From: a virus
Virus record (IMG/VR): IMGVR_UViG_3300045988_141072
Span: 32,001 to 96,000 of that record
Direction: 5' to 3' (one strand)
DNA length: 64,000 nucleotides
Notes under the pieces: generated by a model
The model's input: the letters and a program-made list of their open reading frames with translations, nothing else
Databases searched by the model: none
What the model was told of the DNA's origin: nothing
Made by a program: the position numbers and the translations under genes
Shown: piece after piece, positions 6,626-51,293 of the stretch
How the letters are laid out: each line of letters begins with the position of its first letter
How positions within the stretch are numbered: position 1 is the stretch's first letter

Positions 6626-6659
6626 ACGACAGTTTCTTTGGAATATTTGGAGGTAAAAT

Positions 6660-6953: not shown

Positions 6954-6994
6954 ATTTGAGGTGTCTTAAACATATTAGAAATTTGGAGGAATAA

Positions 6995-7426: not shown

Positions 7427-7440
7427 ATAATCAGCAGGAG

Positions 7441-7758: not shown

Positions 7759-7849
7759 AAATAAGGCGAAATTTGAGATGAAATTTCCAAGGAAATTGGA
7801 CTTTCATTGGGAGAATATTAATGTAAAGAAAGGATAAAAGTGAACAAAA

Positions 7850-15002: not shown

Positions 15003-15140
15003 ATGAAATTCAATTTTATAGATTGTATAGAATTTGAGATTGATTGGAAAGCTGTAGCAGCGATTGCAGCATGTGTACTTGGTTATGCAATCATAACAGT
15101 AATTCAGAAAGGAGATATACATATTGACAAAAGTAATTAA
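15003..15140 (+). CDS. 45-aa single-TM peptide overlapping the nrdD start
   Basis: AAAGGAGA RBS. MKFNFIDCIEFEIDWKAVAAIAACVLGYAIITVIQKGDIHIDKSN. Confidence 0.3.
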   Translation: MKFNFIDCIEFEIDWKAVAAIAACVLGYAIITVIQKGDIHIDKSN

Positions 15141-19894: not shown

Positions 19895-20303
19895 CTCGTC
19901 CACATCTCGTCCACATTCAAGATAATCACACATAAAAATAATAAAACACAAAACAACACAAATCATCATAGACCATTTCGTGTAAAGCCTATGTTTATTA
20001 GCATTATACGACATATTAAATCATAATATAACATAGAAAAACAAATGGCTTTAGAATGGGTAACAACCCAATGGTTGGTGCTACAGTTGCTGTTGCTGTT
20101 TCCGTTGAAGAAGCTGCAAAGGCTGGTAAGTTCTAAATAAAAAGCTTGATTTTATAGGCTTTTGGAGAGTCTTTGGAGAAATCCGAAGACTCTCTTATTT
20201 TTTATAAAAGTGCATGTGGACGAAAATAATATTGAAATGTCCACATCTCGTCCACATAAATTTAAAATGTGGACGAGAAAACAATATTGAAAATGTGGAC
20301 GAG
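19895..20303 (+). promoter_or_regulatory. attP-like region: 7 copies of an 11-bp arm-type site (CTCGTCCACAT / ATGTGGACGAG) flanking a core that resembles the 3' end of a host gene
   Basis: Direct copies at 19895-19905, 19906-19916, 20239-20246 (partial) and 20247-20257. Inverted copies at 20214-20223, 20267-20277 and 20293-20303. The core at 20056-20136 reads MGNNPMVGATVAVAVSVEEAAKAGKF-stop with atypical codon use. Confidence 0.5.
20165..20203 (+). terminator. rho-independent terminator inside the attP-like core
   Basis: GAGAGTCTT (20165-20173) pairs with AAGACTCTC (20186-20194), followed by TTATTTTTT. Confidence 0.6.
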
Positions 20304-20355
20304 GTATGTTATACTCCTAATAAAAGGAACATCCGTTCTTGAAAGGAGTATAACT

Positions 20356-21666
20356 ATGGGTGATGTGTTAATTAAAGCAAGAACTCGTAACAGTGGTAAA
20401 GTAGTATATGAATATCGGTTTGAAGTTGCTTCTATAGATGGCAAACGTCAATGGAAGACTAAATCAGGCTTTGCTACAAAAAGAGAAGCTAGAGAAGCTG
20501 GTAAGATAGCACAGCAAGCATATGAACATGTGGGACAAGCTGTTGAACCTTCAGATATGTCATATGCTGATTTCCTAGATATGTGGTTAGAGAAAGACTG
20601 TAAACTCACTTGCAAATCTTCTACGCTTGTAGGATATGAGAAAAAGATTAGATTATATATCAAACCTGAAATCGGCTCATATAAGCTAAAAACTATTACA
20701 AAAGATACATTACAAGATTTCATTACCAAAATGTATGATGAAGGCTACTCAATCAATACAGTGAACTCAGTTAAAGGATTATTAACAAAATCATTTACTT
20801 ATGCTTTAGACAGACATTATATCATATCAACACCTGCAATAAATTTAGTAGTTCCGACAAAGAAACAACCAAAGAAAACTACGAGAAGTAAGAAACACGT
20901 TTATATTCCTCAAGATATTATGCAAAAAATATTTAAAAGATTCCCCGAGGGCTCGTCAGCTTATATCCCTATTATGATTGGTTATCATACAGGATTACGC
21001 TTGGGAGAGATATATGGACTTGTATGGGAAGATATTGATTTTAAGAATAAAACACTCTCAGTTAATAGACAAGTTCAATGGGAAGCAGGCGAAGCAAGAT
21101 CCGAAGAAGAAAAGAAAAAAACTAATGGTACATCTAAATCTAATGGGTATTGGTACTTCTCTAAGCCTAAATATAATTCTTTTAGAGCAATAAATCTTGA
21201 CGATGTAATATTAGAAGCTCTGAAAAAAGAACACGACAAACAGCTAAAAGCAAGAGAATATTTTGATAAATATTACAATCGATATTATAGTGAAAATGAA
21301 ATGACATATGCTAAAACTGATGATATATTACCAATGAATAAAGTATCTCAAGAAAAGTCACCTTATGAAGTTGATTTTATTTGTAGACGAGAAGATGGCT
21401 CATATATCAGTGCAAGAACAACACAACATACGTCCTCTATAATTCATAAACAGTTACATTTTCCTCAGTACGATACACATAGTTTAAGACACACTCATGG
21501 AACAATATTGTACGAAAATGGAGCTAGTTTTATGTATATTAAGGAGAGGTTAGGACATAAAAATCTACAGACAACAATTGAGATATACACAAATCATTAT
21601 ACAGATACAATAAATAAAAATGGCAATATTGTTTTAAATAATGCTTTTAGTAAGGAGAATGTATGA
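20356..21666 (+). CDS. int: tyrosine recombinase / phage integrase
   Basis: GAAAGGAG RBS then ATG at 20356. N-terminal arm-binding-like domain. Catalytic region GLRLGE...HSLRHTHGT...LGHKNLQTTIEIYTNH (R-H-R-Y). Confidence 0.9.
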   Translation: MGDVLIKARTRNSGKVVYEYRFEVASIDGKRQWKTKSGFATKREAREAGKIAQQAYEHVGQAVEPSDMSYADFLDMWLEKDCKLTCKSSTLVGYEKKIRLYIKPEIGSYKLKTITKDTLQDFITKMYDEGYSINTVNSVKGLLTKSFTYALDRHYIISTPAINLVVPTKKQPKKTTRSKKHVYIPQDIMQKIFKRFPEGSSAYIPIMIGYHTGLRLGEIYGLVWEDIDFKNKTLSVNRQVQWEAGEARSEEEKKKTNGTSKSNGYWYFSKPKYNSFRAINLDDVILEALKKEHDKQLKAREYFDKYYNRYYSENEMTYAKTDDILPMNKVSQEKSPYEVDFICRREDGSYISARTTQHTSSIIHKQLHFPQYDTHSLRHTHGTILYENGASFMYIKERLGHKNLQTTIEIYTNHYTDTINKNGNIVLNNAFSKENV

Positions 21667-35733: not shown

Positions 35734-38700
35734 TTATCTTTTATTTGCTTGTTGATGAGCATATGAACTAAGACCAGCCAACGCATTAAATACATCATTA
35801 GCTTTTGATAAGTCGTTGATATTTGGCAAAGTAACTGTTCCAATAGAAACATTATTATTAACCATTTTATCACCAGTATTTTTAACCAAGTTGCTCATAT
35901 CAGGTATTTGAATATTGTCTAATATCATTTTTGTTGGATTAACACCAAATTTCCACAAGTTATCTGTAATATCATGTGGTAATATCTGGTCACCAGAATT
36001 AAGTAATCTTAACTCAGCACCTCCATCACCAACTATAGACATTCCACCCTTAGCATATTTTGTACCGGTTGCATATTTAGGAACACTGGCTGTAATCTTA
36101 CCATTCTTATCAATAGAAAAAGTAAGACTGTTAAACATTTTCTTGACACTATCTGACATTCCCTCAGTCATTCCCTTAGTTACAGCTCTAACTGCTTCAT
36201 CCACGGTCTTATACAGAGGTTTGCCATTTTCGTCAAAGAAGTTTACATCATCTTTGTGGTCATTTAGCCAATCTAAAATCTTGTTTAACGTATCGAGTTG
36301 TTCCTGATTATAATAGTCGTCAAGATTGTCTTGTGCTTCCTTAACTGCACTATTATCAGCCTCATAATTAAAACCATAATCCTCGTGATAGATTAAATTC
36401 TTTTTATTTTGTTTAGCACTCTGTAATGCCTGTTGAAGTTTTTCAAGTTCAATGGCTTTAGACTGAGCATCATTAAGGTCATTAATTTTGTCAATTAAAT
36501 CCTGAATTGAATTAATCCAAGGTGTCAACAAATCGTCATAGTTGTTCTCAATTTCTGCCTGTTTGTCAAGAATATCTCCGTCAAGACCATCAACTTCTTG
36601 AAGTTTATCCCGAAGTCCATCCCATGAATCAAAAGTCTTTTTAGAGATACCAAGTTTGCTGATACTCTTATAAAATTGGTCAACAGTAATAGTACCTTCA
36701 CGCATTCCTTCATACAAAGCCTTAAACTGCTTCTTCTGAGAAGAATTCAATCCTTTGTCTGATAACGTTTTGTTAATTTGACTCCATTTTTCATCACGTT
36801 CTTTTTTAAGCTGAGATAACCCATTAAGACCGATGGAAATCTGTTTTGTGATTTGCGATTCGTTTTTAGTATGTCCCTGTGACTCCCAGAATGAGATTAT
36901 CTTTTCATAGCGACTAGAAATAGCGTCAAGAACATTTTTAAACTTCTCGAGATTTTGATACGGTAATTCAGATATTGACTTATTCCATTCTAACTGGTTT
37001 TTCTCAGCATCGGATATATTTTTATCAATATCCCGAATTTTCTGCTTAATATCCTGATATTCATCTGAAGTCTTTGCGATATTATTGTTTTTGAGATATG
37101 CCTGATATGCCTTTTTCTCCTGATTCCATTTGTTAATCTGTTTCTTAGAATTAGAGATTTCTTCCTTATAATCACTCTTGGTTGCAGCAAAACCTTTTGT
37201 CTCATTTTTGTCAATTCGACTCTGTGTTTTATCTGCTTCATATTGTAACAAATCTAAATCGTCTTCTAAGTCAGAAATATCATCTTCCAATTGTTTTTTG
37301 ATAAGTTCACGTTTATTTTGTTTTGTTTCTGTAATGTTGTCTCTAGCACTAGTATACTTATCCCAATATTCCTGATAACTGTCGATTGCATCCAATACAG
37401 ATTTTTGTGACTTTTTACTTTTTCCCTTTTTAGCAGACTCTTTAATTGTTTGGATCGAATAATCACCGCTCTGAATCTTCTTTTTTAAATCAGAAGAAAG
37501 ATTAATGCTGTCGAGTTTTTTCTTGTATTTCTTTGCAGCTATTTCATATCCGTGTAATAAATCATCATACTGTTTTTTCGCCTGTTTAAATAAACCGTTT
37601 TTAGTTTTCTTAGAAGCGTAATCGTTTATCTTGTCAACAGTCTTCTTAACTTTATCTTCTAATCGTTTTAAACGAACCTCAATCCAATCAAACACTTTGT
37701 TAGAGGAAGAAGAATCAGAACCAGAACCAGAGCCAGTTACTTTGGGAAGAGAAAGGTCAATATCAATTTTTGTTTTAGTCTTTTTGCCCTTTTTATTTAA
37801 TTTGTTGCCAACTTGATCCTTTGCCATCTTTTTAGAATATTCGTCAACGGTCATTCCATTAGCTCTTGCAGCTGCTTCTAAACTCGAACCCTGATATTTA
37901 GAAGGATTGTTGTTTACATCTTGTAACAAACTAATATTATTAGCAGCAATTCCAGCAGCTTTAGCAATGTTATTTAACTGTTCTATGGTTTGGGTAGCGT
38001 CTAAATCTGACCAATTGGTTGTTTGATAAGCAAGTTTCGCAAGTTCAATTCTTGCCTTTTTAGAACCATTAGCTTCGCCAAGTAACATAGCAATATCAGT
38101 ACCCGACATTTCTGCCAACTCTTCGCCACTTTTAACAGTTTTCTTTTGTTCTTTGCTAAGAGCAGAATATGCAAGATTTAAACTTTTTGCTTTATTTTCA
38201 AGTTGAGTAGTAACAACTTCCTGTGCATTCTTTATACCTAAATCTTTTAACTGACTTGTATAATAATCCTTGTTTTCTTCTGTAAGCTGAGATAAGAAGT
38301 TGTTAGAATTAACGTATTCACTTGCAAGTTTATTCTGTGCTTCCTGACAGTCTGTAAGAGCAGAAGTAGTAGAACCAAGTGTGTTTTTAAATTCATTCCA
38401 AGACTTAAGTTTACCAAATTCAGGTTCCATACCGCTAAGAGTATCTGCACCGGCAACACCATTATCACGCTTATCGGCATATGCATCCTGAATTGATTTA
38501 ATGCTTGATTTAAGGGAATTTAACTGTTTGGAGCTATCAACCAAATCATTGATTTTCTTAATTGCAACATCAGCATCAATTCCTATTTGTGATAACCAAG
38601 TTTTTGCACCTTCTGTTGCTTCAAAGGTTTTCCTTGTAAGTTTACCTGATTCAGCAAGAGTAGTAAGGTCTTTCTTGGTATTTTTCATACCGGAATCATC

Positions 38701-41038
38701 GTCTGCGTTATCAAGGTCTGACCATGCATTCGCAAATTGCCTTTTTGCATCTATCTGTGATTGTTTAACAAATCTTTCTCTTAAATTTTTAAGTAATGTA
38801 TCACTTATATCTTTTTTAGCAATTTGAATAGCTCCGTCTTCACCAGAGAAGTGCATAAGACGACCAACAACTTCTGCCCAATTTCCATTGTTATCATAAT
38901 CTTGACTTGCACTAATAGCTGCATAAATACCATGTACAAAAGTATCACCAATTTTCATACCTTGAGCATCAAGTTTCTTTAATTCGTCATCTGAAACTTT
39001 ACCATCATCAGCGTATGCTTTTTGTAAAATAGTGTTAATATACTTTTCAACAGTGTCTTTTGATAAGAAAGTTCCATCGGGAAGAATAGGAGTAAATGCA
39101 ACCTCCCAACCATTACCATCTAAGTTTTCTCCAAAACGATCAGAACCACCAAATACAGTATCAATAGAGCCTACTTCTGGATTATAATCCCAACTTGCTA
39201 ATGCATCAGCATAAGTTTGTTTAAGCTCATCTGACCAATGGATAATTGTACGCTTATCCATATCAACGTTACCAAATTGCGATAATTTGTTTTTCTTAAT
39301 TGCATCTGCATAATCATCAAGTCCCCAATCAGAAATTTTCTGATATTCATCTTCGAGATTTTGTTGTGCTTCCTCAAATTTTTTTATTTGCTTTTGGGTA
39401 GCATTATTCTTAAAATCATTAATTATATTCTCGTCTATATTAGAAAAATCGGTTATGCTTTCTATTTCTTCATATTTTTTTAAAAGTTTCTGATAGTGCT
39501 TAGATTTTGTTGAAGCATATTCATTAACAGTGTCATCCAAACTATCTTGTGATTTTTTAGAACCTTCATCTATTCCGGAAAATAAATCATCAAAAACAGC
39601 CTTTCCACCGGATACAGTTTTGTTAATATCCTTAACCTTGTTTTTTACTGCGTTAAGATTTTTCTTTGCCGATTCGACACCTTTTCCTGAAGCTAATGCT
39701 TTATTATATTTTTCAACAGCATTTGTAGCTTCGTTATACATTTCTCTGGTGTCATCTCTTGACAAGATTTCTGCTTCGGCATATTTTTTTACATTATTTT
39801 TTGCCTTATTAATCTTGTCTTGATCAAAATCTGAGTCATTCTTTAAATCAGTAATCGTAGATTTATAAGAAGCTTTATATTTTAAATCAGAATTAGAAAT
39901 ATCATCAAAAAGGTTAGTCAATTGTTCTAAAATTTGTTCACGAGTTCCATTTGTATCAAGTCCGTAAAATCCATTTTCCGCACGATAAAATCCTAGATTT
40001 TTATACTTACTTACAATTTTTTCAAGCTTTGATATTTCAGAATCGTCAATCTTTCTTGTAACTCCCAAAACTGTGGATCTAATTAGTTCTTCATTTAAAT
40101 ACTTTTTATCTTCTTTGATATTATTATAGTTAGTAGAAACATAATCACTAGCTTTTTTCTTTGAAATTTTCTCTAGTTTACCTAGTTGCTCATCATATTT
40201 TCCATTAACTAAATCAAGTTTTTCAGCTTCATCACCATATTTTTCATTTAACTCATCTTGTATTTGAGTTAACTGTTCTTTGGTTGTTTTTATTTCTTCA
40301 TTAGAAAGAGAAGAATCTGCTAATTTGGTTTTTAATTCCTTATATTTAGATATAGATTCATCAAGTGAAGAATTTTCTTCATTCCAAGATTCGGTGAGCT
40401 CATTAGATTTTTCACGAGCTTTTTCCGATGCATGAACTAGATTATCTATTCCGGTTACAACTAGACTAATAACTTCTCCGATAGCCCATGCAGCAATCAT
40501 GTTTCCTGCCATGGATAATGCTTTCATACCAACGGACGCAGCTTTGGCACCAATAGTCATTTGTTTTAATCCGTTATTATAAGCAATAGCCGATTGTTTT
40601 GCTGCATTCTGAGCATTTTTTACATCATCAAGAGATACTTTTGTTAAGTTATTTTCTTGAACAAATCTTGATTGCCATTTTTCGCCTTCTTTTAATCCAT
40701 TAAAATAATCTTGCCAACTGCTTTGATTTGCATCTACTAATTTTTTCTGTGTCAAAAGTCCATTTAAAATGTCATCTGGATTTTGTTCGTATACAGATAA
40801 ATCTTTTAATTTATCTTGTATATCAGATTTAGTAATAATAAATTTATCACTTAGGTCTTTTTTAATAGAAGAATTTTTCCACGCATTTGCAATATTAGAA
40901 ATTGTATAATCATTTGTTGCGATTAATTCTTCTGAGACTTTTTTAAACCTATTGCCAATATCTTCAAACGATTTTCCAAATATACCAAACTGAGATGAAA
41001 ATGTATCTTTATCACTGTCAAATGTTTTGAATATCGTA
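35734..41038 (-). CDS. tail tape measure protein, downstream piece (putative exon 2)
   Basis: The ORF track starts at a TTG (40755). The same frame stays open 96 more codons, up to the TAA at 41044-41046, with no start codon or RBS. N-terminal hydrophobic segments (GAKAASVGMKALSMAGNMIAAWAIGEVISLVVTG) followed by >1500 aa of coiled-coil-rich sequence. Confidence 0.7.
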
Positions 41039-41063
41039 CTATATTAATACAAGCTGTTTGAAG

Positions 41064-41095
41064 ACTTGTTGAATTTAATTATATGTGATACAATT
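41064..41095 (+). promoter_or_regulatory. candidate promoter for the + strand cargo genes (extended -10 TGATACAAT)
   Basis: TTGTTG ... 17 nt ... TACAAT with TG at -15/-14. Located 25 nt upstream of the 41120 ATG and its GGAGG RBS. Confidence 0.4.
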
Positions 41096-41119
41096 TTCAT
41101 AAATTGGAGGTGTGCAATC

Positions 41120-41602
41120 ATGTTAATGTATTGTAAAAAATGTGGAAGAGTATGGATAAAATTTGGTACTGAAAAAGACAATTGTGATATATGTGATTCA
41201 ATTTGTTATCCTGTGCCAGATAAGTATTTATTGGTCTGGAATGGAGAAATTTATAAAAATAATTTGAATGAAAGCAAAAAAGATCAATTCATAGAAGAAT
41301 GCGTAAAATCTTCGCCAGAATTTGATGAATATCTCTTTAATAATCGAGACAGAACCAAAGCACAAAAATCTGCTGAATATGAACGAGATTTGGCTATCGG
41401 TGATGCAATACGTCAAGGTGCAGATGTTAAAACAGCTTTTCGTAATGGTGGACAAAATATTCCTAAATGTCCTACCTGTGGTTCGACAAATATTCAAAAA
41501 ATCTCCACCACAAGGAGATTGGTAACTACAGGTTTATTTGGATTAGCAAGCAGTAATGTTGGTAAAACTATGCTTTGTAAAAATTGTGGTTACAAGTGGT
41601 AA
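41120..41602 (+). CDS. double zinc-ribbon protein
   Basis: GGAGG at 41106-41110. N-terminal CKKCG...CDIC and C-terminal CPTCGSTNIQKI...GLFGLASSNVGKTMLCKNCGYKW. Confidence 0.6.
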   Translation: MLMYCKKCGRVWIKFGTEKDNCDICDSICYPVPDKYLLVWNGEIYKNNLNESKKDQFIEECVKSSPEFDEYLFNNRDRTKAQKSAEYERDLAIGDAIRQGADVKTAFRNGGQNIPKCPTCGSTNIQKISTTRRLVTTGLFGLASSNVGKTMLCKNCGYKW

Positions 41603-41693
41603 ACAATATCGAATGCATGTTCAGGCTATCCTCATTTGGTAATTAGTGGTAAAATATTCCTATAAAAATAATGTACAGAGGAGGAAGTTTACT

Positions 41694-41999
41694 ATGACAA
41701 CTAATGAACAATGTATGAAAGATATTCTTACTTTCATTGACGAAAACACAAGCGTAAAAGTTAGGACATCTAGCAATAATGATATTGAATTGCGAGCACC
41801 TGGAATTTCATCAATATTAACAGCTTTGAGCAAAGATAATAAATATTCTATTGAAGAAGTTGCTTTTAATCTTGTAAAATGTGATAAATTACATCTTATA
41901 GATGCAAACTTATATACTCAAGGGAATACTATTAAATCTGCTCAAAGTGATATTTATGGTATTACATGTTACGGAGAACAATTTATCAAAGAAAAATAA
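41694..41999 (+). CDS. hypothetical protein (possibly winged-helix, DUF2513/YjcQ-like)
   Basis: AGAGGAGG RBS. MTTNEQCMKDILTFIDEN... The N-terminus resembles the 43244 ORF type. Confidence 0.45.
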   Translation: MTTNEQCMKDILTFIDENTSVKVRTSSNNDIELRAPGISSILTALSKDNKYSIEEVAFNLVKCDKLHLIDANLYTQGNTIKSAQSDIYGITCYGEQFIKEK

Positions 42000-42025
42000 T
42001 CTACTTTTATGTTTTTATCGGTGTT

Positions 42026-42208
42026 TTAAATTTCTGATTCATCATCAGGAAATCTTAAATATCCTGTACATTTTAAGCGATCAAGTGAATTATTTAAAAA
42101 GACTACGGCTTGGAAATAATCCAAGTCGTTTTCTTTGAATAACAATAATAATCCACTATATAATTGTTCTATTTTTTCATGAGTACCAATACTTAATTTA
42201 TTGTTCAT
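42026..42208 (-). CDS. hypothetical 60-aa protein
   Basis: GAGGTG RBS 6 nt before the ATG at 42208. The ORF-track start at 42331 is an unsupported extension. Confidence 0.4.
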   Translation of the reverse strand: MNNKLSIGTHEKIEQLYSGLLLLFKENDLDYFQAVVFLNNSLDRLKCTGYLRFPDDESEI

Positions 42209-42272
42209 AATTATCACCTCATAATAAATTGCTAAAGAGTATACAAAGTCGAAATAGAATAGGAGAACTAAT

Positions 42273-42710
42273 ATGTTATCAGATGAACAATTACAAAGAT
42301 TATCTGAAATCATAAGTTCAGCAGAATACAAAAATTATACAGCCAGCCAGATAAAGGAACAGACATATAAAAATCTAAAACAAAATAATATTCCAGATTT
42401 TGAAAATCCAATAGTAACAGAATTAAAAACTGCTAACAGTAAGATTGATGAATTATCAGAACAGTTGGATTATTCATATACACAACTTAAACAAGCAAAT
42501 GATAAAATTTCTTCTCAGAATTTATATATAAAAGAGTTGAAATCTGATTTAAAAGAAGAAACTGAGAAAAGAGTAATTGCCGAAAATAAGTTGGGTAGTA
42601 AAGATTGGAAAACTGCACTGATTTCGTTTGGGTTTGCTTTACTTGTTTTGATAATAGAACATTGGAAAGACATTTTAACTTTTATACTATCCCTAATACA
42701 CGCAAGATAG
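42273..42710 (+). CDS. coiled-coil protein with C-terminal membrane anchor
   Basis: AGGAGAA RBS. Heptad-rich middle region. C-terminal WKTALISFGFALLVLIIEHW. Confidence 0.5.
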   Translation: MLSDEQLQRLSEIISSAEYKNYTASQIKEQTYKNLKQNNIPDFENPIVTELKTANSKIDELSEQLDYSYTQLKQANDKISSQNLYIKELKSDLKEETEKRVIAENKLGSKDWKTALISFGFALLVLIIEHWKDILTFILSLIHAR

Positions 42711-42783
42711 TAATCCCAACACAATACCCTAAAATAGTTCCTATACCTTGGAAAAATATTTGTCGTTTTATTTCTTTAGACAT
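42682..42783 (-). CDS. 33-aa hydrophobic peptide, convergent with and overlapping the 3' end of 42273..42710
   Basis: AAAGGAG RBS. MSKEIKRQIFFQGIGTILGYCVGITILRVLGIV. Confidence 0.35.
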   Translation of the reverse strand: MSKEIKRQIFFQGIGTILGYCVGITILRVLGIV

Positions 42784-42819
42784 ATTGACTCCTTTCTTTG
42801 AAATAAATACTGTCATTCA

Positions 42820-42936
42820 ATGAACACTTCTAAAATTGGCACAGTAAGTCGTATGATTTCGACCACTATGTTCGGATTAGCAAGTAAGAAAATGGGTAAA
42901 CAATGGCACTGTAATAGCTGTAAGAGTGATTTTTAA
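42820..42936 (+). pseudogene. orphan copy of the C-terminal half zinc-ribbon module of 41120..41602
   Basis: MNTSKIGTVSRMISTTMFGLASKKMGKQWHCNSCKSDF parallels ...IQKISTTRRLVTTGLFGLASSNVGKTMLCKNCGYKW. It lacks the first CxxC and has no RBS. Confidence 0.4.
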
Positions 42937-42969
42937 AAATAGAATAATTCACTTAAACATATGTTCCGA

Positions 42970-43266
42970 CTAACAAAATCCATCAACATGATTTAATGCC
43001 ATTACAACATCGTTATCAACATGGTTCGTTTTATGACCACTAAAATAATCATCATATATTGCATATTCTAATTCATTACGTTGTTCCTTAAACTTATCAG
43101 TGAGAAGCGTAAGAATTTCTTCGACTTCAGAATATGTACATTTGTGATTTTTTAGCATTTGAGAAATTTCAACTGAGAGATACATTGTTTTTGAGATATA
43201 TTTATTATCCAATTTATCACATCCTTTCAATGGAGGTATACTAATGAAGCTTAATCCTGATTGCAT
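42970..43266 (-). CDS. hypothetical protein (start uncertain)
   Basis: ORF divergent from 43244..43684. Internal candidate starts exist. No motif recognised. Confidence 0.35.
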   Translation of the reverse strand: MQSGLSFISIPPLKGCDKLDNKYISKTMYLSVEISQMLKNHKCTYSEVEEILTLLTDKFKEQRNELEYAIYDDYFSGHKTNHVDNDVVMALNHVDGFC

Positions 43267-43684
43267 GAGAATTATACTTAAATACTGTGTAGAACATATT
43301 GATTATAAAGACATTGGTCTTAATCAGTGGCATGAAAATTCTGTTACACTTGCTATGCTATATAATAGTGATGAACTCAAAGAGTTTGAGAAGAAAGAAA
43401 TTATGTATTCTGTAATGAAACTTTATGAGTATAGGTTTATTACCGTATCTAAAATTCAGCCAACAAACGGACAACAATATTTTGACAGTTGTGAAATAAC
43501 AGACGTAACGGTTTATGGTCACGACTTTTATAATTCTATTCAAGAAGATACCATCTGGAATAAAACTAAAAATGTTGTTGGTCAAGTTGGAAATCACACA
43601 TTGAAGTTCATCGAAGATGCTGCTCAAAAAATTGCAATTGAGTCTGCGAAACAAGCTGTAACTATTACGATGATGCAAAAATAA
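43244..43684 (+). CDS. DUF2513/YjcQ-like protein
   Basis: GGAGG RBS. The N-terminus MKLNPDCMRIILKYCVEH is typical of DUF2513-type proteins as I recall them. Confidence 0.5.
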   Translation: MKLNPDCMRIILKYCVEHIDYKDIGLNQWHENSVTLAMLYNSDELKEFEKKEIMYSVMKLYEYRFITVSKIQPTNGQQYFDSCEITDVTVYGHDFYNSIQEDTIWNKTKNVVGQVGNHTLKFIEDAAQKIAIESAKQAVTITMMQK

Positions 43685-43706
43685 TATTTAGATCAAATAG
43701 AATAGA

Positions 43707-43735
43707 AGAGTAGTGAGAAATTACTACTCTTTTTT
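43707..43735 (+). terminator. rho-independent terminator after 43244..43684
   Basis: AGAGTAGT (43707-43714) pairs with ACTACTCT (43723-43730), followed by TTTTT. Confidence 0.6.
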
Positions 43736-43739
43736 AGAC

Positions 43740-43777
43740 AAAAAAGAGCAACTATAAACATATAGTTGCTCATAAAA
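43740..43777. terminator. strong bidirectional terminator (perfect 11-bp stem)
   Basis: GAGCAACTATA (43746-43756), loop AACA, TATAGTTGCTC (43761-43771). A-run upstream and A/T-rich downstream. Confidence 0.6.
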
Positions 43778-44021
43778 GAAATATCTTTTTATATAATTCA
43801 CTGGCTCAATGCCAAATAGCGTTAGGAAAATGGTAATCCTAACATATCAATTCACTGTCCTTATTGACTATTTAACTATGACACATTTATTCTTTTTCGT
43901 CAACAATGTTCTTTTTCAATTGTATTATATGCGATATGAGCCAAGTGTAATAGTTGTGGGCATACTTGATAGAAGAAGAACAATAGAAGAGGAGTAGACT
44001 ATATCGCCGCTCTTTGCTTTT

Positions 44022-44061
44022 ATGTAAAATAAAATGAGAGCAGGTCACACCTACTCTCATT
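44022..44061 (-). terminator. rho-independent terminator downstream of the second repeat pair
   Basis: On the - strand: AAUGAGAG, loop, CUCUCAUU, then UUAUUUUAC. Confidence 0.55.
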
Positions 44062-44089
44062 CTTTCTACTGATGATATTTATCTCCCTG

Positions 44090-44161
44090 CTTCGTGGTCA
44101 CACCTCTATCAGTTCGACTACCGTACCTCGTGGTCACACCTCTATTACGGTATTAATATCA
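44090..44161 (-). repeat. two tandem 36-nt repeats related to the ToxI-like array (orphan antitoxin-like RNA?)
   Basis: Units 44090-44125 and 44126-44161 share C(T/C)TCGTGGTCACACCTCTAT. A third partial GGTCACACCT lies at 44043 in the terminator loop. They share a CTTCGT...TCTATTA core with the 45627-45734 repeats. Confidence 0.45.
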
Positions 44162-44192
44162 TAATAAATATATTCTATGATGTCAATGTTTA

Positions 44193-44918
44193 TCATAAAA
44201 TATTTTTTATTCCCAATATCTCCTTATATTCTGTATCTACATTATAAATTTTAGCTCCTAGTATTTTTGCTAATTTATGAAAATCTTTTTTAACATTCGC
44301 ATTATATCTAAGCATTTGTGATGGAACTATATCTGCTATTTGCAAACCAATGCAATTATCACCTTTCACAGTAAAACCAATAGAAGATAAGTAGTTACTA
44401 ACTTCTTTTTCATCAAAATAAATAGAGCCATTTTGTAAATATCTATAAAAGACATCTAAGACATTTTTATTTTCATTAAAGCAACGTGACTCAACACAAA
44501 TTTGACCATAACCACCTTTATCTCTTAGATAATATGTAAACATATCTAATAAATGATAAAATCCAATATTATAATTATTACCGGCTTTCCCATATCGCAA
44601 TTTAGACATTTTATTATTATCAAAGTAAATACATAAAATATCAAGTTTTGCCTCTGATAGAAGTTTTGCGTAATCATCCCAAAACGGTTTTCTTATCTTT
44701 TCATCTTGTAGACAAGCAAAATCTTTTTTATTCTTTCGCATATCGGTATAGTGAAAAACAATATCGGTACGACCAAAATGTTTTTGCTTTAATTGGTTTA
44801 CAAGTTTTGTTAATTCCTTTTCGTAATATTCTCTCTCAACGACAATTCCAGCAAAACAAAAGTTTGAATAATGTTTATCTGGTTTAGTTTCGTCAACAAA
44901 GAGCAAATAATCAGCCAT
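44193..44918 (-). CDS. DUF3800-family protein
   Basis: GGAGAA RBS then ATG at 44918. The N-terminal LLFVDET acidic motif is typical of DUF3800. Confidence 0.6.
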   Translation of the reverse strand: MADYLLFVDETKPDKHYSNFCFAGIVVEREYYEKELTKLVNQLKQKHFGRTDIVFHYTDMRKNKKDFACLQDEKIRKPFWDDYAKLLSEAKLDILCIYFDNNKMSKLRYGKAGNNYNIGFYHLLDMFTYYLRDKGGYGQICVESRCFNENKNVLDVFYRYLQNGSIYFDEKEVSNYLSSIGFTVKGDNCIGLQIADIVPSQMLRYNANVKKDFHKLAKILGAKIYNVDTEYKEILGIKNIL

Positions 44919-45034
44919 AATATATTCTCCAATCATTAGTATTATAATTCCCCATTATATACCAATAATCGACAGAATACTATTCAGAACGTTTGTTTAT
45001 AGGTGAATAGAATAGAAGAGTAATGAGAAATTGT

Positions 45035-45067
45035 TGCATAATAAAAGACACCTTAGTTGGTGTCTTT
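45035..45067 (-). terminator. hairpin/terminator overlapping the toxN stop codon
   Basis: AAAGACACC (45044-45052) pairs with GGTGTCTTT (45059-45067). The stop codon lies in the loop. The downstream tract on the - strand is U-rich. Confidence 0.45.
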
Positions 45068-45589
45068 ATTGTTTTGGTACATCTTTGCTAATTGCTCCAT
45101 ACCTTTGAAATCAATGCAACGCTTGGAAATAGTATTTTCTGGTTTATCATATTTTAGACTATAAAGCTCCAAAGCCTTAGTACCTAAGTCTAATTTGTTG
45201 ATTGCCTTCAGCTCTGAATCTAACAGATTAATATATCTGCTTTTAGCTTCTTCTGACTCAAAAGACCTGTATGTATCTATTTTCTTTTTCTCAAATTTTT
45301 GTGTACATTCTTTTGGAATTGGAAACATATAATTCAAATTTACGACAGCAATTAGTCTTTTTGGATTTTTGAGATCAAACAGTTTATAGAAATCTTTCTG
45401 TTGTCCCATTTTTTGATGTCGCTTTTGTGGATGAGATACTTGTGTTATATAATATAAACCGTCTTTTTCAAAAAGAACTCCGAAGAATGGCTTATATTTG
45501 TCTGTCCCATAATCTGTTTTTGGTATTCTTTTTTCTACATTTCTCAAATAATCTAAATAATTTTCATTTACATGAATCCATTTCATCAT
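45053..45589 (-). CDS. toxN: type III toxin-antitoxin toxin, ToxN/AbiQ-family endoribonuclease
   Basis: MKWIHVNENYLDYLR..., PFFGVLFE, YYITQVSHPQKRH, VVNLNYMFPIP and C-terminal KRCIDFKGMEQL all parallel conserved ToxN/AbiQ blocks. AGGAGA RBS at 45598-45593. Start at 45589 or 45586. Confidence 0.85.
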   Translation of the reverse strand: MMKWIHVNENYLDYLRNVEKRIPKTDYGTDKYKPFFGVLFEKDGLYYITQVSHPQKRHQKMGQQKDFYKLFDLKNPKRLIAVVNLNYMFPIPKECTQKFEKKKIDTYRSFESEEAKSRYINLLDSELKAINKLDLGTKALELYSLKYDKPENTISKRCIDFKGMEQLAKMYQNNKDTN

Positions 45590-45600
45590 ATGTCTCCTAA

Positions 45601-45625
45601 ATAAAAGGAGCTGTAACACAGCCCC
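45601..45625 (-). terminator. attenuating terminator between antitoxin repeats and toxin
   Basis: On the - strand: GGGGCUGU, loop GUU, ACAGCUCC, then UUUUAU. This is the same position as in ToxIN/AbiQ loci. Confidence 0.65.
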
Positions 45626-45626
45626 T

Positions 45627-45734
45627 TATTAATACGATTTTTTACATGCTTCGTAACATCTATTAATACAGTATTTTTACATGCTCTGTAACATCTATTA
45701 ATACGATTTTACGGCTTCGTAACCGCTATTATAG
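45627..45734 (-). ncRNA. toxI: ToxI/antiQ-like antitoxin RNA: about 3 tandem repeats of 31-35 nt
   Basis: Repeats at 45627-45660, 45661-45695 and 45696-45726, plus a partial 4th. Each contains a hairpin with compensatory changes (AUGUU-ACGA-AGCAU versus CGGUU-ACGA-AGCCG) and an A-rich tract. Confidence 0.8.
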
Positions 45735-45770
45735 AAATCATTTCTGATTTCTTACTTATATTATACACAA
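45733..45770 (-). promoter_or_regulatory. candidate toxI-toxN promoter (-10 TATAAT at 45765-45760) and 5' leader hairpin
   Basis: GTGTATAAT on the - strand. 8-bp hairpin AGAAATCA/TGATTTCT at 45733-45752. Confidence 0.35.
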
Positions 45771-45889
45771 TTATGAGAAAAAATCTATGCTTTTTTTGAA
45801 AAACTTTTAAATTTTTTAAGTCAATAAAAGTCGAAAAAATACGATGAAAAATTGTATCGCATTTTTGCAAAGTATTATATAATTATTTA

Positions 45890-46509
45890 GGGGGGGAGAA
45901 CAAAAGTCCATAGATTTAATTCTGTGGGCTTTGTTTTTATGTGTGTTTCTTTCAAACTTACGGTACACACGAACCCTACTGTTGTCCTATTAACAATGTG
46001 CTATTTAATAAGGTGAGAGCAGTAACACTCTTTTACGCTTTTATATCTCAGTCACGAGAGTAGTACGATAACTACGTATGGAGTCCCTTTTACAAGCTAT
46101 CTTATGATAACTCAAAATCGTTTAGACTCTCTGAACACCTCCATTATAATATTCTCTATTATAATAGAATCCGTTGCTGATTGCCGATTTAGTTCATATA
46201 GAACCGATACTTAGGGTTGCCCCATATATCCGAATAACCTCCATTTCTAGATTTGACTTTTCTTGTTGTCACCAACATCCTTTCGGAATACATTCACGCT
46301 CGCCATTTCTAGCCACGTTGTAGTGTGTTATTTTATATATACGGTATATTTTATTTCTTCCCAGCACTGTGAGATAGCAACTCACAATTACGATTTATTT
46401 TAAAACATCTATAGGCTGACTAGACCTAATCTTCCCAACTCTTGATTGTTATCTTGAGTTAGGTGGGCATATTCAAAACAATAACAACGATTTGAAAAAT
46501 TACGCACTC
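45890..46509 (-). ncRNA. ~620-nt ORF-free structured RNA; putative group I-like ribozyme core at the 5' end of the intervening sequence
   Basis: No ORF on either strand. Many hairpins. P1-like hairpin at 46515-46500. GUUCAGAGAGUCUAAAC (46136-46120) resembles the group I R element. Candidate P3, P7 and P8 pairings (see findings). Confidence 0.5.
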
Positions 46510-49500
46510 ACGTAACATTTACCGATGTTTTTAAAACTAAGACCTGCTGCAATAGCAGCAAAAATATTTGGAATCAAACGCCCATCTTTTATTACAGTAT
46601 CAAGAGCGCTAATTAATTTTCCAGCATTATCAATAGCACCCTTTAAAAAGTCTGATGATAACGCATCATTTGCTAATTCTTCTAGTTTAGCTTTTGTAAC
46701 ATCAATAGAATACTGAATTGATTTCTGATAATTTTCTTGTTCTTTTTGTGCAGAACCGGCAGAGTTTTCGGCTGTTTTATATACATTTTCTAATTGATCA
46801 ATATTCTGCATAACAGAATATAAAACATTGGCATTTCGTTTTCCAGCCAAAGCCTCTCCAAGAGAAGACTGTTCTAAGTCTGTAAGATTATTCCACTCTT
46901 TTCCTATTCCAAGTAAAATATCGTATATTGACTTAAAAGTATTTTCATCTTCCATAATATCAAATCCAGTAAGGGATTTGATCAAATCTCGTAATTTTGA
47001 AGTTGTTTTGGTATATTCATCTGTTTCTTCGCCAAGATTTTGCAATTCTGTTTCTGCACCACGAATACGTGCAGAAAGTGTCTTAAATGTTGTACCGATA
47101 CTGTCTGGATCTTGCACTACAGCATTTGCAGTAGTAACTAAAGCTATACTTTCAGATAAACTCGTGTTTGCAGCATTAAACGAAGCAGCAGAACGTTTCA
47201 AAGCTTCGCCAATACCTTGTGTGTCTATTGCATAGTGGTTCGCAACCTCATTAAATTTGTCAATTATGCTTTCGGCTTTACTTGCATCTAACTGAAAACC
47301 TTGAAGTGTTGAAATAAGATTTTCACTTGCAGTTTCTGTAGACATATTGTCGCCGACATTAACATAAAGCTGTGTCGTTTTCGCTAATTTCTCTGCGTCT
47401 GGAATAGAATAACCAAGTCTAGCCCAATCTGCTTGCAATGATACAATGTTACTAATTGAAGAACCTAAATCTTTTGCATCGACTGTCGCCTGTTCAAGAG
47501 CATTATTTAAGTCCGACTCTGTTCCGTCAGACACCTTTCTTAATTCAGTGACACTTTTATTAATTTCATTAACTAAATTAAATCCTTGCTGTAGATATCT
47601 TATCCAATCTTGCCAACTCAAAAACTGAGCAACAAACTTGCTGTTCATATCAGTAAGACGACTACCAATTTGACTAAAGAAGTTTTTGCCCATATTACCA
47701 GTTGAAGCAACATCTGCCTTTAATCCAGAAAAAGATATTTTAATCTTTTCAATTTCTTGTGCAGTTACTTTACCAGCGTTTTTAAGTTCTTCTGCATAAT
47801 CAATAATACTATCTAAATTCTGCTTCTGAGATGAAGACATATTGGTGTTTTGCGATCTAAAAATCTTCATCTGTGATATAATATCAGCAATCTTAGAATC
47901 TTGTTTAACAAGTTTATTCTCTAACAATTTTGAATCGTCAACTATTTTTTGAACTTCACTATCAATCGCCTTTAAGCGGGCAACGTCTTCTGGTTTTGTG
48001 ATATTAAGCCGCTCAATTTCTTTCATTTTTGAGCTAACTCGCTCAATAAATTCAGGAGTATATTTAGAAGCATTAGTGTATGTAGATAATTTTTGTACTT
48101 CATCATTTTGAATTTTTAAAAGACTATTATCGACTTTTTGTGCATTTTTTTGCTGAATCTCCGAAATAGTTTTATCTATTTTATCCAACTTATCCTGTGC
48201 ATTAGATAATTGTTTAGACGATAATATGGTGGCAGAACCATCTGCTTTTCCCATAATTTCATTTATTGTTTTCAATAATTCTTGGGAATCTTTTTTATCG
48301 TTATTAAATGCCTTGTCATTTGCCATTCGTTTTCTTATAGAAGCATATTCATCTATGGCAATATTTAACTCTTTGAATTTTTGAATTTGCTTGTCCGTTT
48401 TAGGTATTTTTATTTCATCTTTTCCAAAGTTTGTCAACTCATTATCAAGATTATTAATCCCCTTAGTAATAGTTCGAAATCTTTGAGAAAACATATTTCC
48501 ATCTGCGTCAATTCTTGCAGAAAATGTTTTCCAAGTTCCATCAGCGTCTTTTATTTTTGCACTTACCTTTACAAGACCATCAACAAGTTCAGTGTTTACT
48601 GTTTCTCCAAGAATTGTATATCCAGAATTTAATAACTTCTCATTAACTCTATTAGGAGAGTAATTTAAGAAATCTTCTTCTGATATTTTTTTTCTTTTTG
48701 TATATCTATCCTTTTTAGGTGGAGTAGGTGGAGTTGTATTTCCCGATGAAATATTCGATTCTTCTGATGGAAGAGTAGTATCATCTTTTGGTATTTTTAA
48801 TTTAGGAATATTTTCTATCTTTTCTACCAATGGATTTAAAGCATCAATAATTTTCTGAATAGATTTGACTTCAGCCCTTGCAGCTAATTCCATCGTATTA
48901 GCTTCTATCTTAATTGCTTCAGTTTTTATATTAATAGTAGAAGTTAAAGTATTAACAGAATCTTCTACTTTATTAAACCCTTTTGCTTCATTCGTGACAG
49001 AAGTTCCATCTTTTTTTGAATTCATCTGTTCATAGACTTTGTTCATTTTTTTAATGGTTTCTGTGTTGTCTGTTAAATCAAAAGGTGTTTTCATACCGCC
49101 AGCGTTTACATACTTTTGGTACATTTCAACTAATTCTTGAATATCTTTCTTCTGCTTAGATAAATTGATTTTACCAGATTCATCAGCAATGGATTTGAAT
49201 TTAGATTCAATAGAAGACCACTGTTTATCTACATCGCTAATAGAAGCGTCTTTGAACATTTTCCAAAATGTATTACCAATATCTCTTGTCAAATTTATCA
49301 TACGGTCAAGTCGAGAAATAACATCATCAAGAGTAGAAGATACTGATTCCAATTCATTGTCTGCTTTGTCTACAGAAGATGTATCTACTTTCTGGGAATT
49401 TAACTCTTTAACTTTTAAAAGAATAGTATCTATGATATTCTTGCTATCTTCAAGTTTCCCAACCCTTCCAATAGAAGACAACTCATTAGTGCCGCCCATA

Positions 49501-51293
49501 TTGAGATATTTATTATATTCTGAAGCAAGCTTATCCACATTTGCATTTTTTCTAAAAGTACCATCTAATTTGATAGAATTTTCAATTAACTTAGATACAT
49601 TCTTCCACTGCGTTTCGATGTCGGTGACACTACTTACACCCGATGCTCTTGCAAGAGTAGATTCTATATTCTGTAATGTCTTTAACATTGACTGCAATTC
49701 GGTTAATTGACCAAGACTTTTTGAAATTTCTTCTGCAAATTTATCAAATCCTTTAAAACTAAAATTCTTTGAATCTGCTGAATTTAATAATTCATTAACC
49801 TCTACAAGTTTGTCAGCAAGTTCATTAACCTCTTTTTTTGATTCTGCTATTTGACCTGTAATATCAATCTTTTTACCAGAATCGGAAGAAAGAAGTGCGT
49901 CTGATATTTTTTTGAATTCTTTTTCATTAAAATCAAAACATAATTTAATAGGAGAAATTTCAAATATATTTTGAATTTTACCAATTGTTTTCTTAGAATA
50001 AGAAACAGCCTCATCCATTATAGAAGTAAATGTCTTCTTATAAACACCTTCTAAATCAATAACTGCATCTTCACCAGTTTTTGCTAATTCTCTTTGATAT
50101 TTTTTTGAATAAGACTTGCTTACAGTTCCGACTTCACCTTTTTTCTCAGAAGATACTGCATTTGGTGCTACTACAAGTTTTACAGGAGCAACAACAGGAT
50201 TATTATTAAGATCATTCTGCAAATTATCAAGAATAGGAGAGAGCTTCTTCCATAATTCAGACGAAGTGGTTTCAATTGTTACACCAGTTACTAATTCTGC
50301 TGAATTTGGATTGAGTTTATCTGATATTTTTGCGGAAGCTGTTTTAGACGAAGTAGGTTTTATCATTTTTTCTAATTCTTCACGAGTTTTGATAGCCGAT
50401 TCACGAATTTCATCTAAAGTACCCTTTACGATTTTTCCATATTCAGATACTTTTTTGTCAACATTGTCATCAGAAATAAGTATTGAATCGCCAAATGTAT
50501 ATTCCCCTGTTTTATCAGGAATATCCATTAACTGTTGAATAGAATCATGTAAATCGGCAGCTTTTAATTTTAATATATTAATTTGGTTAATTGTTTTTTC
50601 AAAACCAATACTGTTTTTATCAAAGTTTGAAAGTTCCGATTCAGATTTTTCGATTAATTCAAGAGTGTTTTTTAAATCCCTGGCAAGAACATCTAATTCT
50701 GCTTGAGCTTGATCTGTATCAAATAATTCATATTTTGAACCTTTTGCATCACTGAATTCATCTGTACTTTTAAGTAGTTTATTAATTTCTTTTATCTGAG
50801 ATTTTGCTTGATTTACTGCGTTATCATCAAATGACATTAATGAAATGCCTTGATCATTAAGCTTCTTAATCATTGTATCAATAGCATTATTTGTATTCTG
50901 TACATAGTCTTGGAAATCTTTAAATTGACTACTTATTTTACTTATATCAATACCATTTCCAAGTATTTTTATTTGTGAATTTATAGTTGAAACAGCTAAA
51001 TCTAATCTATCAATTTCTGCACGAACAGATTCAAAATTCTTATTAACAGTTTGCTTAAAAGCCTTAAAACTGTTTTTATCCACTTTTCCGATACTTAAAT
51101 CAGAAAAAGATTTTTCCATATCTGCCTTAAAACGTTTTAATTCAGCAATAGTGTTATCAAATTGTGCCTTCATTCCTTTTGATAACTTATCACTTGAAGC
51201 CATCTCGGTTAAAGCAGATTCGTAATCACGAATCATCTGATTAAGCTCATTCTTATAATCAATAGCAATACTTACTACACCATCTTTTGCCAT
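46510..51293 (-). CDS. tail tape measure protein, upstream piece (putative exon 1; as an unspliced ORF it ends at 46500)
   Basis: TP901-type TMP core near the C-terminus (LGSSISNIVSLQADWARLGY...AIDTQGIGEALKRSAASF...SIGTTFKTLSARIRG). About 1200 aa of coiled-coil-rich N-terminal extension. AAGGAGGAA RBS. Confidence 0.8.

Follow-up and report, generated by a model that had tools for sequence, protein, structure and literature searches.

On the minus strand of the 64,000-nucleotide (nt) stretch of viral DNA considered here (positions 32,001 to 96,000 of IMG/VR record IMGVR_UViG_3300045988_141072, hereafter the window), positions 45782..45006 hold what we take to be a functional type III toxin-antitoxin cassette of the ToxIN type, a reading to which we assign a probability of about 0.85. 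From 5' to 3', the cassette is made up of a -10 box, a 5' stem-loop, three repeats, an intrinsic terminator, a ribosome-binding site (RBS), the toxin gene toxN, and a second terminator (Table 1). An earlier note on this DNA had proposed an open reading frame (ORF) at 45053..45589 with the conserved blocks of ToxN/AbiQ, preceded on the same strand by about three tandem repeats, a terminator with a U-tract, and an RBS. Closer analysis bears this out: all of the peptide blocks quoted are found in the 178-amino acid (aa) translation, Tandem Repeats Finder reports an array at 45627..45731 (period 35, 3.2 copies, 81% matches), and a stem-loop with a T-run and the motif AGGAGA follow in that order. 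The repeat count can be made exact, at three full units, and two elements missing from the earlier description, the conserved 5' stem-loop and the -10 box, are also present.

The same layout recurs upstream of ToxN homologues at 109 other loci. We fetched 112 loci with ToxN homologues (designated by L numbers below) and examined 113 upstream regions; 101 of these carry tandem repeats of 31-35 nt that end 35-73 nt before the ATG, and the repeat-toxin layout of the cassette is therefore far beyond chance. Among the 109 regions that could be parsed, arrays of three copies predominate (86 regions), with two copies in 22 and four in 1. The remaining elements were scored in 69 distinct homologous regions. 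The promoter evidence is a TATAAT, which in the window has no recognizable -35 element and which in 52 of the 69 regions lies no more than 60 nt upstream of unit 1; 41 of these 52 have a hairpin (dG <= -3) between the -10 box and unit 1, the stem sequences of which differ; RNAfold gives -8.0 kcal/mol for the near-identical 5' stem-loop segment of locus L005, and we infer a role in stabilization of the 5' end. A hairpin with a T-run occupies the place of the intrinsic terminator in 36/69 regions under strict criteria, and a Shine-Dalgarno-like motif is found in 59/69. In the window itself, the AAUA trailing repeat unit 3 leads into the terminator, and on the minus strand the stem of the hairpin over the toxN stop codon is followed by UUUUAUUAU. 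A scan of 2.6 kb returned six terminator-like sites where 0.7 would be expected, both cassette hairpins among them.

The toxin belongs to the ToxN/AbiQ family by sequence and by predicted fold. The toxN ORF encodes 178 aa (MMKWIHVNENYLDYLR...) from the ATG at 45589 or 177 aa from a second ATG at 45586, the latter probably being the start because its spacing from AGGAGA fits better. Searches with the ToxN/AbiQ hidden Markov model families, the check that the earlier note had in mind, gave a match to Pfam PF13958 (ToxN_toxin) at E=2.4e-42 and 145 bits, against a cut-off of 25, over profile positions 1-159 of 159, and to the PADLOC AbiQ model at 4.5e-21. ToxN_toxin is the sole Pfam match. A phmmer search of the PDB found ToxN (6.3e-8) and AbiQ-family entries, the former from Pectobacterium atrosepticum (2xd0), Escherichia coli (7d8o), and Bacillus thuringiensis (4ato), and in PHROGs the protein matches the unannotated family phrog_9764 (1.8e-18). 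An AlphaFold2 model, built on an alignment of 33 homologues (mean predicted local distance difference test score 91.5, predicted template-modeling (TM) score 0.86), gives the toxin the ToxN fold, a twisted β core with surrounding helices related to Kid/MazF; its four top Foldseek matches in the PDB are ToxN(Pa) 2xd0, ToxN(Ec) 7d8o, ToxN(Bt) 4ato, and AbiQ 4glk, at TM 0.73-0.80. CptN (4rmo) and MazF come lower, at TM 0.55 and ~0.3, respectively. Membership of the cptIN or tenpIN families was rejected, with CptN (E=1e-3) far behind the ToxN/AbiQ structures and no other Pfam match. Sixty-two columns are invariant across the 33-sequence alignment, including that of Ser51, which aligns with Thr52 of ToxN(Pa) 2xd0; Ser51 of AbiQ, a threonine in ToxN, is the presumed nucleophile (review PMC5086642). 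Homologues at E<1e-5 number 418, many of them 65-81% identical, and derive from Lachnospiraceae/Butyrivibrio metagenome-assembled genomes and human-gut metagenomes, where they bear the source name 'type III toxin-antitoxin system ToxN/AbiQ family toxin'. A pattern scan of viral contigs based on the single protein returned nothing, and an alignment-based scan was needed in its place.

The repeats, for which the family consensus is AAUAGAGGUUACGAAGCCUACCAAAAUCGUAUU, behave as a structured RNA. In an alignment of 86 distinct repeat units (A2), two crossing helices are apparent: helix 1, AGG/CCU (AUG/CAU or CGG/CCG in the window), and helix 2, UACGA/UCGUA, in which what would be the 'loop' UACGA pairs with UCGUA on the 3' side of the A-tract. 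Standard pairs fill 94% of the cells, compared with 84% for shuffles, and the covariation score is 0.377, compared with 0.18, with neither value reached by any of 500 shuffles. Six of the eight pairs have changed on both sides, giving 77 compensatory cells, and sliding the partner strand by 1-3 columns leaves only 21-49% pairing. The order within a unit is the 5' strand of helix 1, 1 nt, the 5' strand of helix 2, 2 nt, the 3' strand of helix 1, an A-rich loop of 4-9 nt, and the 3' strand of helix 2, and each unit is a classical H-type pseudoknot. This is the fold described for ToxI, in type III systems laid out as promoter, repeats, Rho-independent terminator, and toxin (PMC5086642, PMC3401426), and with its short loop 1, 2-nt junction, and longer A-rich loop 3, the unit fits the 'Group I' ToxI pattern (<=7 nt) of PMC3401426. 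The earlier note had drawn a 5-bp hairpin with compensatory changes between copies; the outer 3 bp stand, as does the exchange of AUG/CAU (units 2 and 3) for CGG/CCG (unit 1), but the inner 'UU...AG' part is replaced by the competing helix 2.

The middle unit of many arrays, that of the window included, has a compensated helix 2, ACAG/CUGU instead of ACGA/UCGU. Double compensation of this unit is recurrent (ACAG/CUGU, AUAG/CUAU, or AUGA/UCAU), with the outer units keeping ACGA/UCGU (L001, L021, L022, L049, L105, and L109, among others), and could block mis-pairing between neighboring units in the precursor. Such variants also allow the register of the pseudoknot to be read. In all six informative cases, the 3' strand of helix 2 pairs at 4/4 positions with the loop of its own unit, compared with a mean of 1.7/4 with the neighboring (preceding) unit, and therefore loop 3 of the pseudoknot is formed by the A-tract, with UAUU/AAUAG as the site of the unit boundary. 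The alternative of processing in the A-tract, with pseudoknots formed across DNA-unit boundaries, was rejected on these figures; it would also leave a loop 3 of only 2 nt.

Sequence comparison shows the cassette to be a mobile module. An identical ToxN protein is found on three other contigs with different neighbors, and blastn recovers 45006/45043..45782 as a discrete block of 98% identity in L003, where the neighbors are of helix-turn-helix type, and in the distant phage L004, the flanks of which are unrelated. L005 is 99% identical to the window across 44915-51011 but has other genes downstream of toxN. Among 50,697 GenBank phage records, megablast and blastn found no match to the island, and tblastn of the toxin found two weak matches only.

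Taken together, these features suggest a mechanism much like that of characterized relatives. A single promoter would give rise to a transcript running from a protective 5' stem-loop through three ToxI-like units of 31-35 nt. Most transcripts would end at the intrinsic terminator, with a minority reading through into toxN, and we propose that this minor read-through keeps the antitoxin RNA in excess. Each unit folds through helix 1 (AUG/CAU or CGG/CCG, 3 bp) and helix 2 (UACGA/UCGUA, 5 bp), with the A-rich loop 3 crossing helix 1. By analogy with solved ToxIN complexes, ToxN would cut the precursor between units, at a site that we place in the UAUU/AAUAG linker and not in the A-tract, and the processed pseudoknots would hold the enzyme inactive. 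Should transcription of the cassette stop, as might happen when an invading phage shuts off the host or when the element is lost, the labile RNA would decay, and the ToxN thus freed would cleave A-rich RNA and arrest the cell.

Several observations weigh against this account. The TATAAT was omitted by a scan for σ70 promoters for want of a good -35 element. Kinship among the repeat units of related loci means that the significance of the shuffle tests is overstated, an effect lessened by the slid controls and by the large number of distinct pair types. No match to the repeats was found in Rfam (E <= 1 over 44000-47000; gathering score over the whole window), so that the antitoxin RNA is assigned by architecture and covariation and not by homology to a curated ToxI; it would work like ToxI, but it lies outside the curated RNA families. 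Finally, the published cleavage motifs of ToxN/AbiQ enzymes, AA/AU, A/AAAA, and A/AAA (PMC5086642), fit the A-tract better than the UUAAUAG linker chosen as the unit boundary, and the processing site is for this reason uncertain, although the linker is favored by a UUAA that is conserved behind the last unit even where loci otherwise differ. The missing -35 element would also suit a decaying or silenced passenger, with an inactive toxin and repeats kept only by recent transfer, expression of the cassette being a prediction from sequence. We consider this very improbable: the toxin covers the full Pfam profile and retains its nucleophile position among the invariant columns, the same ToxN protein is present in four genomes, compensatory changes keep both RNA helices across the 86 distinct units, and the cassette retains its own terminators and RBS.

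Table 1. Features of the ToxIN cassette and of the interrupted tape-measure gene that surrounds it (window coordinates)
Feature	Position	Strand	Remarks
-10 box TATAAT	45760..45765	-	read directly; kept in relatives
5' stem-loop AGAAAUCA-GAAA-UGAUUUCU	45733..45752	-	at or near transcript start
ToxI-like repeat unit 1	45700..45730	-	31 nt; helix 1 CGG/CCG, helix 2 UACGA/UCGUA
Repeat unit 2	45665..45699	-	35 nt; helix 1 AUG/CAU, helix 2 UACAG/CUGUA (compensated variant)
Repeat unit 3	45631..45664	-	34 nt; helix 1 AUG/CAU, helix 2 UACGA/UCGUA
Intrinsic terminator between repeats and toxN	45601..45627	-	stem GGGGCUG/CAGCUCC with flanking A-U pairs, U-run; stem-loop 45627..45605
Shine-Dalgarno AGGAGA	45593..45598	-	read directly
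toxN, ToxN/AbiQ-family endoribonuclease toxin	45053..45589	-	Pfam, PADLOC, PDB phmmer, and AlphaFold2/Foldseek matches
Bidirectional terminator hairpin over toxN stop codon	45036..45067	-	terminator scan: + strand 45044..45067
Whole ToxIN cassette as mobile module	45006..45782	-	blastn
Structured non-coding RNA, probable group I catalytic core	45900..46520	-	directly after exon 1; fold z = -2.67
Tape-measure exon 1 (5' part)	46521..51293	-	conservation ends ...KNIG, GGT at 46523-46521
Tape-measure exon 2 (3' part)	35734..41034	-	conservation starts IFKTFDSD, ATA at 41034-41032; preceding codon ACG
Whole interruption (probable intron with cargo)	41035..46520	-	bounded by conserved exon ends
DUF3800 gene	44193-44936	-	co-cargo
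DUF2513 gene (phrog_585)	43244-43684	+	co-cargo
DUF2513 gene (phrog_585)	41646-41999	+	co-cargo, paralogue of 43244-43684 gene
Zn-ribbon gene orf178	41120-41602	+	co-cargo, next to 3' end of interruption

The cassette lies, as the earlier note had suggested, within an insertion in the phage tape-measure gene. Two ORFs, of 1597 aa (46500-51293) and 1673 aa (35734-40755), match consecutive parts of phrog_4211 (positions 121-945 and 957-1392, respectively) and are ~5.5 kb apart. Of the 26 viral contigs that encode a ToxN homologue, 13 have a tape-measure N-part (21-41% identical) whose end lies 2-5 kb upstream on that strand, with a Zn-ribbon gene like orf178 following on the opposite strand; the flank extends as far as the C-part in two of the 13 (L008 and L019). 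No uninterrupted tape-measure homologue spanning the junction was found among the 120 best matches. The split is thus conserved over a broad clade of large Lachnospiraceae-type phages and is no recent, one-off event. Its edges are sharp. The N-part is conserved up to exactly ...KN[IVL]G, beyond which sequences differ or stop, and conservation of the C-part starts exactly at IFKTFDSD. Immediately before IFKTFDSD, about one variant in three has ATG; the codon is ACG in the window, L004, L008, L026, and L124, AAG in L024, and TTG in another clade, and no Shine-Dalgarno sequence precedes the C-part in any variant examined. In the window, the ACG (41035-41037, minus strand) stands where the gene calls of relatives start the C-part at ATG. 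With a non-start codon and no Shine-Dalgarno sequence, the C-part would, as an independent gene, have no start.

The tape-measure gene may host more than one insertion site. In L004, a stretch with a 486-aa ORF interrupts the N-part a second time (6165-8170), near residue 1412 of the window protein, and L014, L023, L137, and L140 have a gap at the same place. Truncated C-part fragments are also found beside bacterial housekeeping genes (ftsH, pth, mfd, and NAD synthase) in L113 (4980-11323) and L115 (9455-10957). Both start MIFKTFDSD and have a small ORF on the opposite strand directly upstream, with a TIR-domain gene ~4 kb further upstream in L113; they may be prophage remnants or mark an integration boundary.

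The interruption is probably a group I intron or a derivative of one. The structured RNA that follows exon 1 was traced with a 16-mer from its R-like element, which retrieved 18 further viral loci containing the same 600-nt RNA at 77-95% nucleotide identity. In all 18, it stands directly behind tape-measure N-parts that are only 26-58% identical at the amino acid level, and a core so much better conserved than the host genes before it is the hallmark of a mobile element. Exon 1 ends in U, and a U.G pair is present at the splice site in 18/18 cores (GGU, followed across the site by A, with UGCC); in clade B, GUCGGU/GCCGAC pairs 6/6, and clade D has C.A instead of U.G. The base before exon 2 is G in all variants examined, with the two bases before it varying (AUG, ACG, AAG, and UUG). 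A conserved guide motif (16-46 nt into the interruption) reads GAAUAU-GCCCAC at 46474-46463 of the window; its counterparts are GAAUA(U)-GCCGAC (clade B), GAAUAU-ACCCAC (clade D), and CAGUGA-GCCUAC (clade C). The 3' half of the motif complements the last bases of exon 1 (GUCGGU/GCCGAC, 6/6; UAGGU/GCCUA also pairs), and the 5' half complements the exon 2 start AUAUUC in clades A, B, and D. For clade C, the start of exon 2 was predicted from CAGUGA and found as G followed by UCAUUU, in frame, at the homologous position, and with 5/6 pairs. In a P10 shuffle test on the 12-mer, the match was significant only for L008 (12/5000 shuffles) and L026 (107/5000).

Other parts of the core are consistent with this identification. 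Exon positions -10..-4 pair with GAUGUUU (46409-46403), with covariation at -5 (AU 16, GC 1, UA 1). Alignment of the core sequences with MAFFT and folding with RNAalifold gave 157 pairs, 50 of them with >=2 canonical pair types, and compensatory changes are found in the P1-extension hairpin, P2, P2.1, P8, and P9. Candidates for P3 (46396-46390/46121-46115), P4, P6, P7 (46129-46125/46085-46081), P8, and P9 were picked out by eye; P3, P6, and P7 are invariant in the core set, in part through its selection by the R-element 16-mer. Elements that resemble the classical P, Q, R, and S sequences were likewise picked out by eye. The terminal G is preceded, at a distance of 20-30 nt, by a hairpin whose stems covary and whose loop resembles UUCAAAC.

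A number of results argue against an intron. The Rfam Intron_gpI model scores only 10.5 bits in the window, compared with a gathering score of 50, and gives no match in L004, and Rfam searches of the whole window, of 40400-47000 (E <= 1-5), of five related loci, and of sub-regions (E <= 10) returned no ToxI, group I, or group II above noise. For the clade of the window, the guide match of 10/12 is reached by 1197/5000 shuffles and is not significant. The interruption also holds antisense genes and several strong terminators in the path of a cis-splicing transcript. These results, together with the ATG that precedes the proposed exon 2 in about a third of variants, are what would be expected if there were no intron at all, but two separate tape-measure-like proteins with an ordinary moron or defense island between them, the structured RNA being something else. 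We regard this as a serious contender, if rather less probable. The C-part mostly lacks a canonical start and never has a Shine-Dalgarno sequence, yet its conservation begins at the very next codon; that of the N-part ends exactly at ...KNxG; G always stands before exon 2, and the U of exon 1 is paired with G in every core; the exon-intron pairs covary; GAAUAU, the complement of AUAUUC, adjoins the exon-1-binding bases and becomes AGUGA where exon 2 starts UCAUU; and the RNA core can be 95% identical behind host genes that are 26-58% identical. The group I intron thus remains our preferred identification, with actual splicing across 5.5 kb, a prediction, rated somewhat lower.

Other placements of the boundaries and of the class were tried and rejected. 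A group II intron was dismissed on its start (AAAUG/UUUGAG, not GUGYG), the lack of a domain V match, and the lack of a reverse transcriptase. A first candidate for P3 (46490s) fell inside the P1 loop, and an alternative 5' splice site after GUGAGU (46506) failed on the observation that the 'KCYVSA*' it would add travels with the 95%-conserved intron and not with the host gene. The 600-nt RNA had no megablast or blastn match among the 50,697 GenBank phages. Between the RNA core and the ToxIN promoter lies a further bidirectional terminator-like hairpin (45903-45932); if it were efficient on the minus strand, tape-measure transcripts would stop before the cargo, and antitermination or trans-splicing would have to be considered.

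The cassette shares the interruption with a DUF3800 gene and two DUF2513 paralogues, for none of which PADLOC has a model, and with orf178. DUF2513 recurs beside ToxN homologues in L004, L039, L051, and L074. The C-terminal motif of orf178, CPxCG...GLFGLAS...CxxCGYKW, is conserved, and its homologues (L004-L029, L120, and L124) are nearly always found on the opposite strand, directly beside the interruption's 3' end, irrespective of the remaining cargo; orf178 might be the element's own mobility or maintenance gene. Putative sister introns with the same core and long flanks (L120, L123, L124, L125, and L134) have no ToxN and carry instead a GmrSD_N-like protein, Bro-N/ANT, GNAT, and Zn-ribbon proteins, and unknowns. 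By this comparison, ToxIN is one interchangeable module of a variable island, and where present, it is always in the sense orientation relative to the tape-measure gene.

The source of the DNA is a large temperate phage or prophage. Genes for a DnaE-type polymerase, a RecD-like helicase, and an NAD ligase are present in the window, with tail, virion, and tape-measure proteins encoded on the minus strand. A tyrosine integrase (20269-21666, plus strand) with Arm-binding and SAM-like domains is located between the replication and tail modules, and the phage is therefore considered temperate. NrdD, an anaerobic ribonucleotide reductase (15124-18393, plus strand), is split by an intein that contains a LAGLIDADG homing-endonuclease domain, which gives this phage a second element of the self-splicing or homing kind. 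Close homologues of ToxN and of the tape-measure protein have Lachnospiraceae as hosts, among them Eshraghiella crossota. An origin of the island at a tRNA or attachment site was rejected, there being no tRNA in the window and the integrase being 20 kb away.

What, then, might the cassette do in such a phage? It may plausibly defend against competing phages, it could equally well serve addiction or maintenance, and the two roles are not mutually exclusive. That the locus is a real ToxIN system kept for addiction or stabilization, through post-segregational killing upon loss of the prophage, the cargo island, or the intron, would suit a temperate phage and a region of module gain and loss; some type III systems are bifunctional and stabilize plasmids (PMC5086642), and the sole earlier phage case of the toxIN family is a plasmid prophage (PMC3401426). 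As an explanation of the locus, we nonetheless think it less likely than not. It was through phage resistance that ToxIN(Pa) and AbiQ, the characterized relatives, came to light, and the GmrSD_N-like co-cargo of the sister introns and the TIR-domain gene near the L113 C-part fragment give the surroundings the look of a defense island. A broader proposal, to which we would give slightly less than even odds, is that ToxIN is carried by a mobile group I intron of giant size (4-6 kb), present in the tape-measure gene clade-wide in large temperate gut phages, in which a 5' catalytic core and a distant 3' splice site bracket hypervariable, defense-island-like genes. The intron would then serve as a safe harbor and vehicle for accessory and defense genes within an essential late gene, with late read-through supplying ToxI during the phage's own lytic cycle. 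If this were so, read-through ToxI could protect the phage from the toxin that it encodes, with lysogens still armed against other phages, which raises an idea of how a phage escapes death by the abortive-infection toxin that it carries.

Comparison with the best-described systems, the ToxIN of P. atrosepticum, E. coli, and B. thuringiensis (2xd0/2xdd, 7d8o, and 4ato), reveals the same toxin fold and family, the same operon layout of promoter, tandem repeats, intrinsic terminator, and toxin, a shared H-type pseudoknot unit, and retention of the Ser/Thr nucleophile position. However, the window toxin is only 19-20% identical to these proteins over structural alignments, and its antitoxin, with three units of 31-35 nt, is of unrelated repeat sequence; the arrays of P. 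atrosepticum and B. thuringiensis are of 5.5 x 36 nt and 2.9 x 34 nt, respectively. The window also differs in units that are not identical within the array, the middle one having a compensated helix 2, in the extra 5' stem-loop, and in being phage-borne, inside an interrupted tail gene. AbiQ/antiQ of Lactococcus lactis (4glk) is likewise a Firmicute ToxN-family toxin with ~3 repeats of ~35 nt. PADLOC files the window protein under AbiQ, Foldseek gives TM 0.74-0.79, and the nucleophile is a serine, as is Ser51 of AbiQ, but identity over the structural alignment is 16%, and AbiQ is borne by a plasmid of the host and not by a phage.

Phage-borne precedents are few. Loci of the toxIN family have been reported in the genomes of Lachnospiraceae, Roseburia, Ruminococcus, and Eubacterium, together with one phage case, Clostridium phage D-1873 (PMC3401426), and a 2025 survey stated that, before its own tenpN matches, no other type III toxin-antitoxin system had been reported in phages (PMC12283969). 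Like the window locus, that of D-1873, a plasmid prophage of a clostridial host, is a temperate-phage toxIN; it is one of the two tblastn matches noted above, with 27.6% identity, and is not in a tail gene or an intron. Our literature searches found no precedent for ToxIN or defense cargo in an intron of a phage tail gene.

The td, nrdB, and nrdD (sunY) introns of T4 are not toxin-antitoxin loci but provide context for the interruption. In these introns, as is proposed for the window, the U that ends exon 1 is paired with G, the intron ends in G, a guide pairs with both exons, and the intron is more conserved than the host gene. In sunY, coding cargo stands between the 5' catalytic core and a distant 3' splice site, as is also proposed for the window. 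The differences are in scale and content: the window-type cargo is of 4-6 kb, with several genes on both strands that have their own promoters and terminators and no recognizable homing endonuclease among them, part of the exon-1-binding sequence comes after P2/P2.1, the core is not recognized by the Rfam model, and splicing is predicted. Were this a functioning group I intron, it would carry multi-gene, interchangeable defense-type cargo in place of a homing endonuclease and would explain how phages park accessory genes in an essential structural gene at no cost.

As a toxin-antitoxin system, the cassette is an ordinary, textbook toxIN-family locus that offers little that is new mechanistically, although it can serve as a clean example, supported by covariation, of a family of 33-nt ToxI pseudoknots found widely among Lachnospiraceae and the phages of these bacteria. 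What is new is that ToxIN recurrently resides in a cargo region, probably intronic, within a phage tail gene: where the literature that we found has a single phage-borne toxIN, a whole clade of large gut phages carries ToxIN cassettes at the same place.

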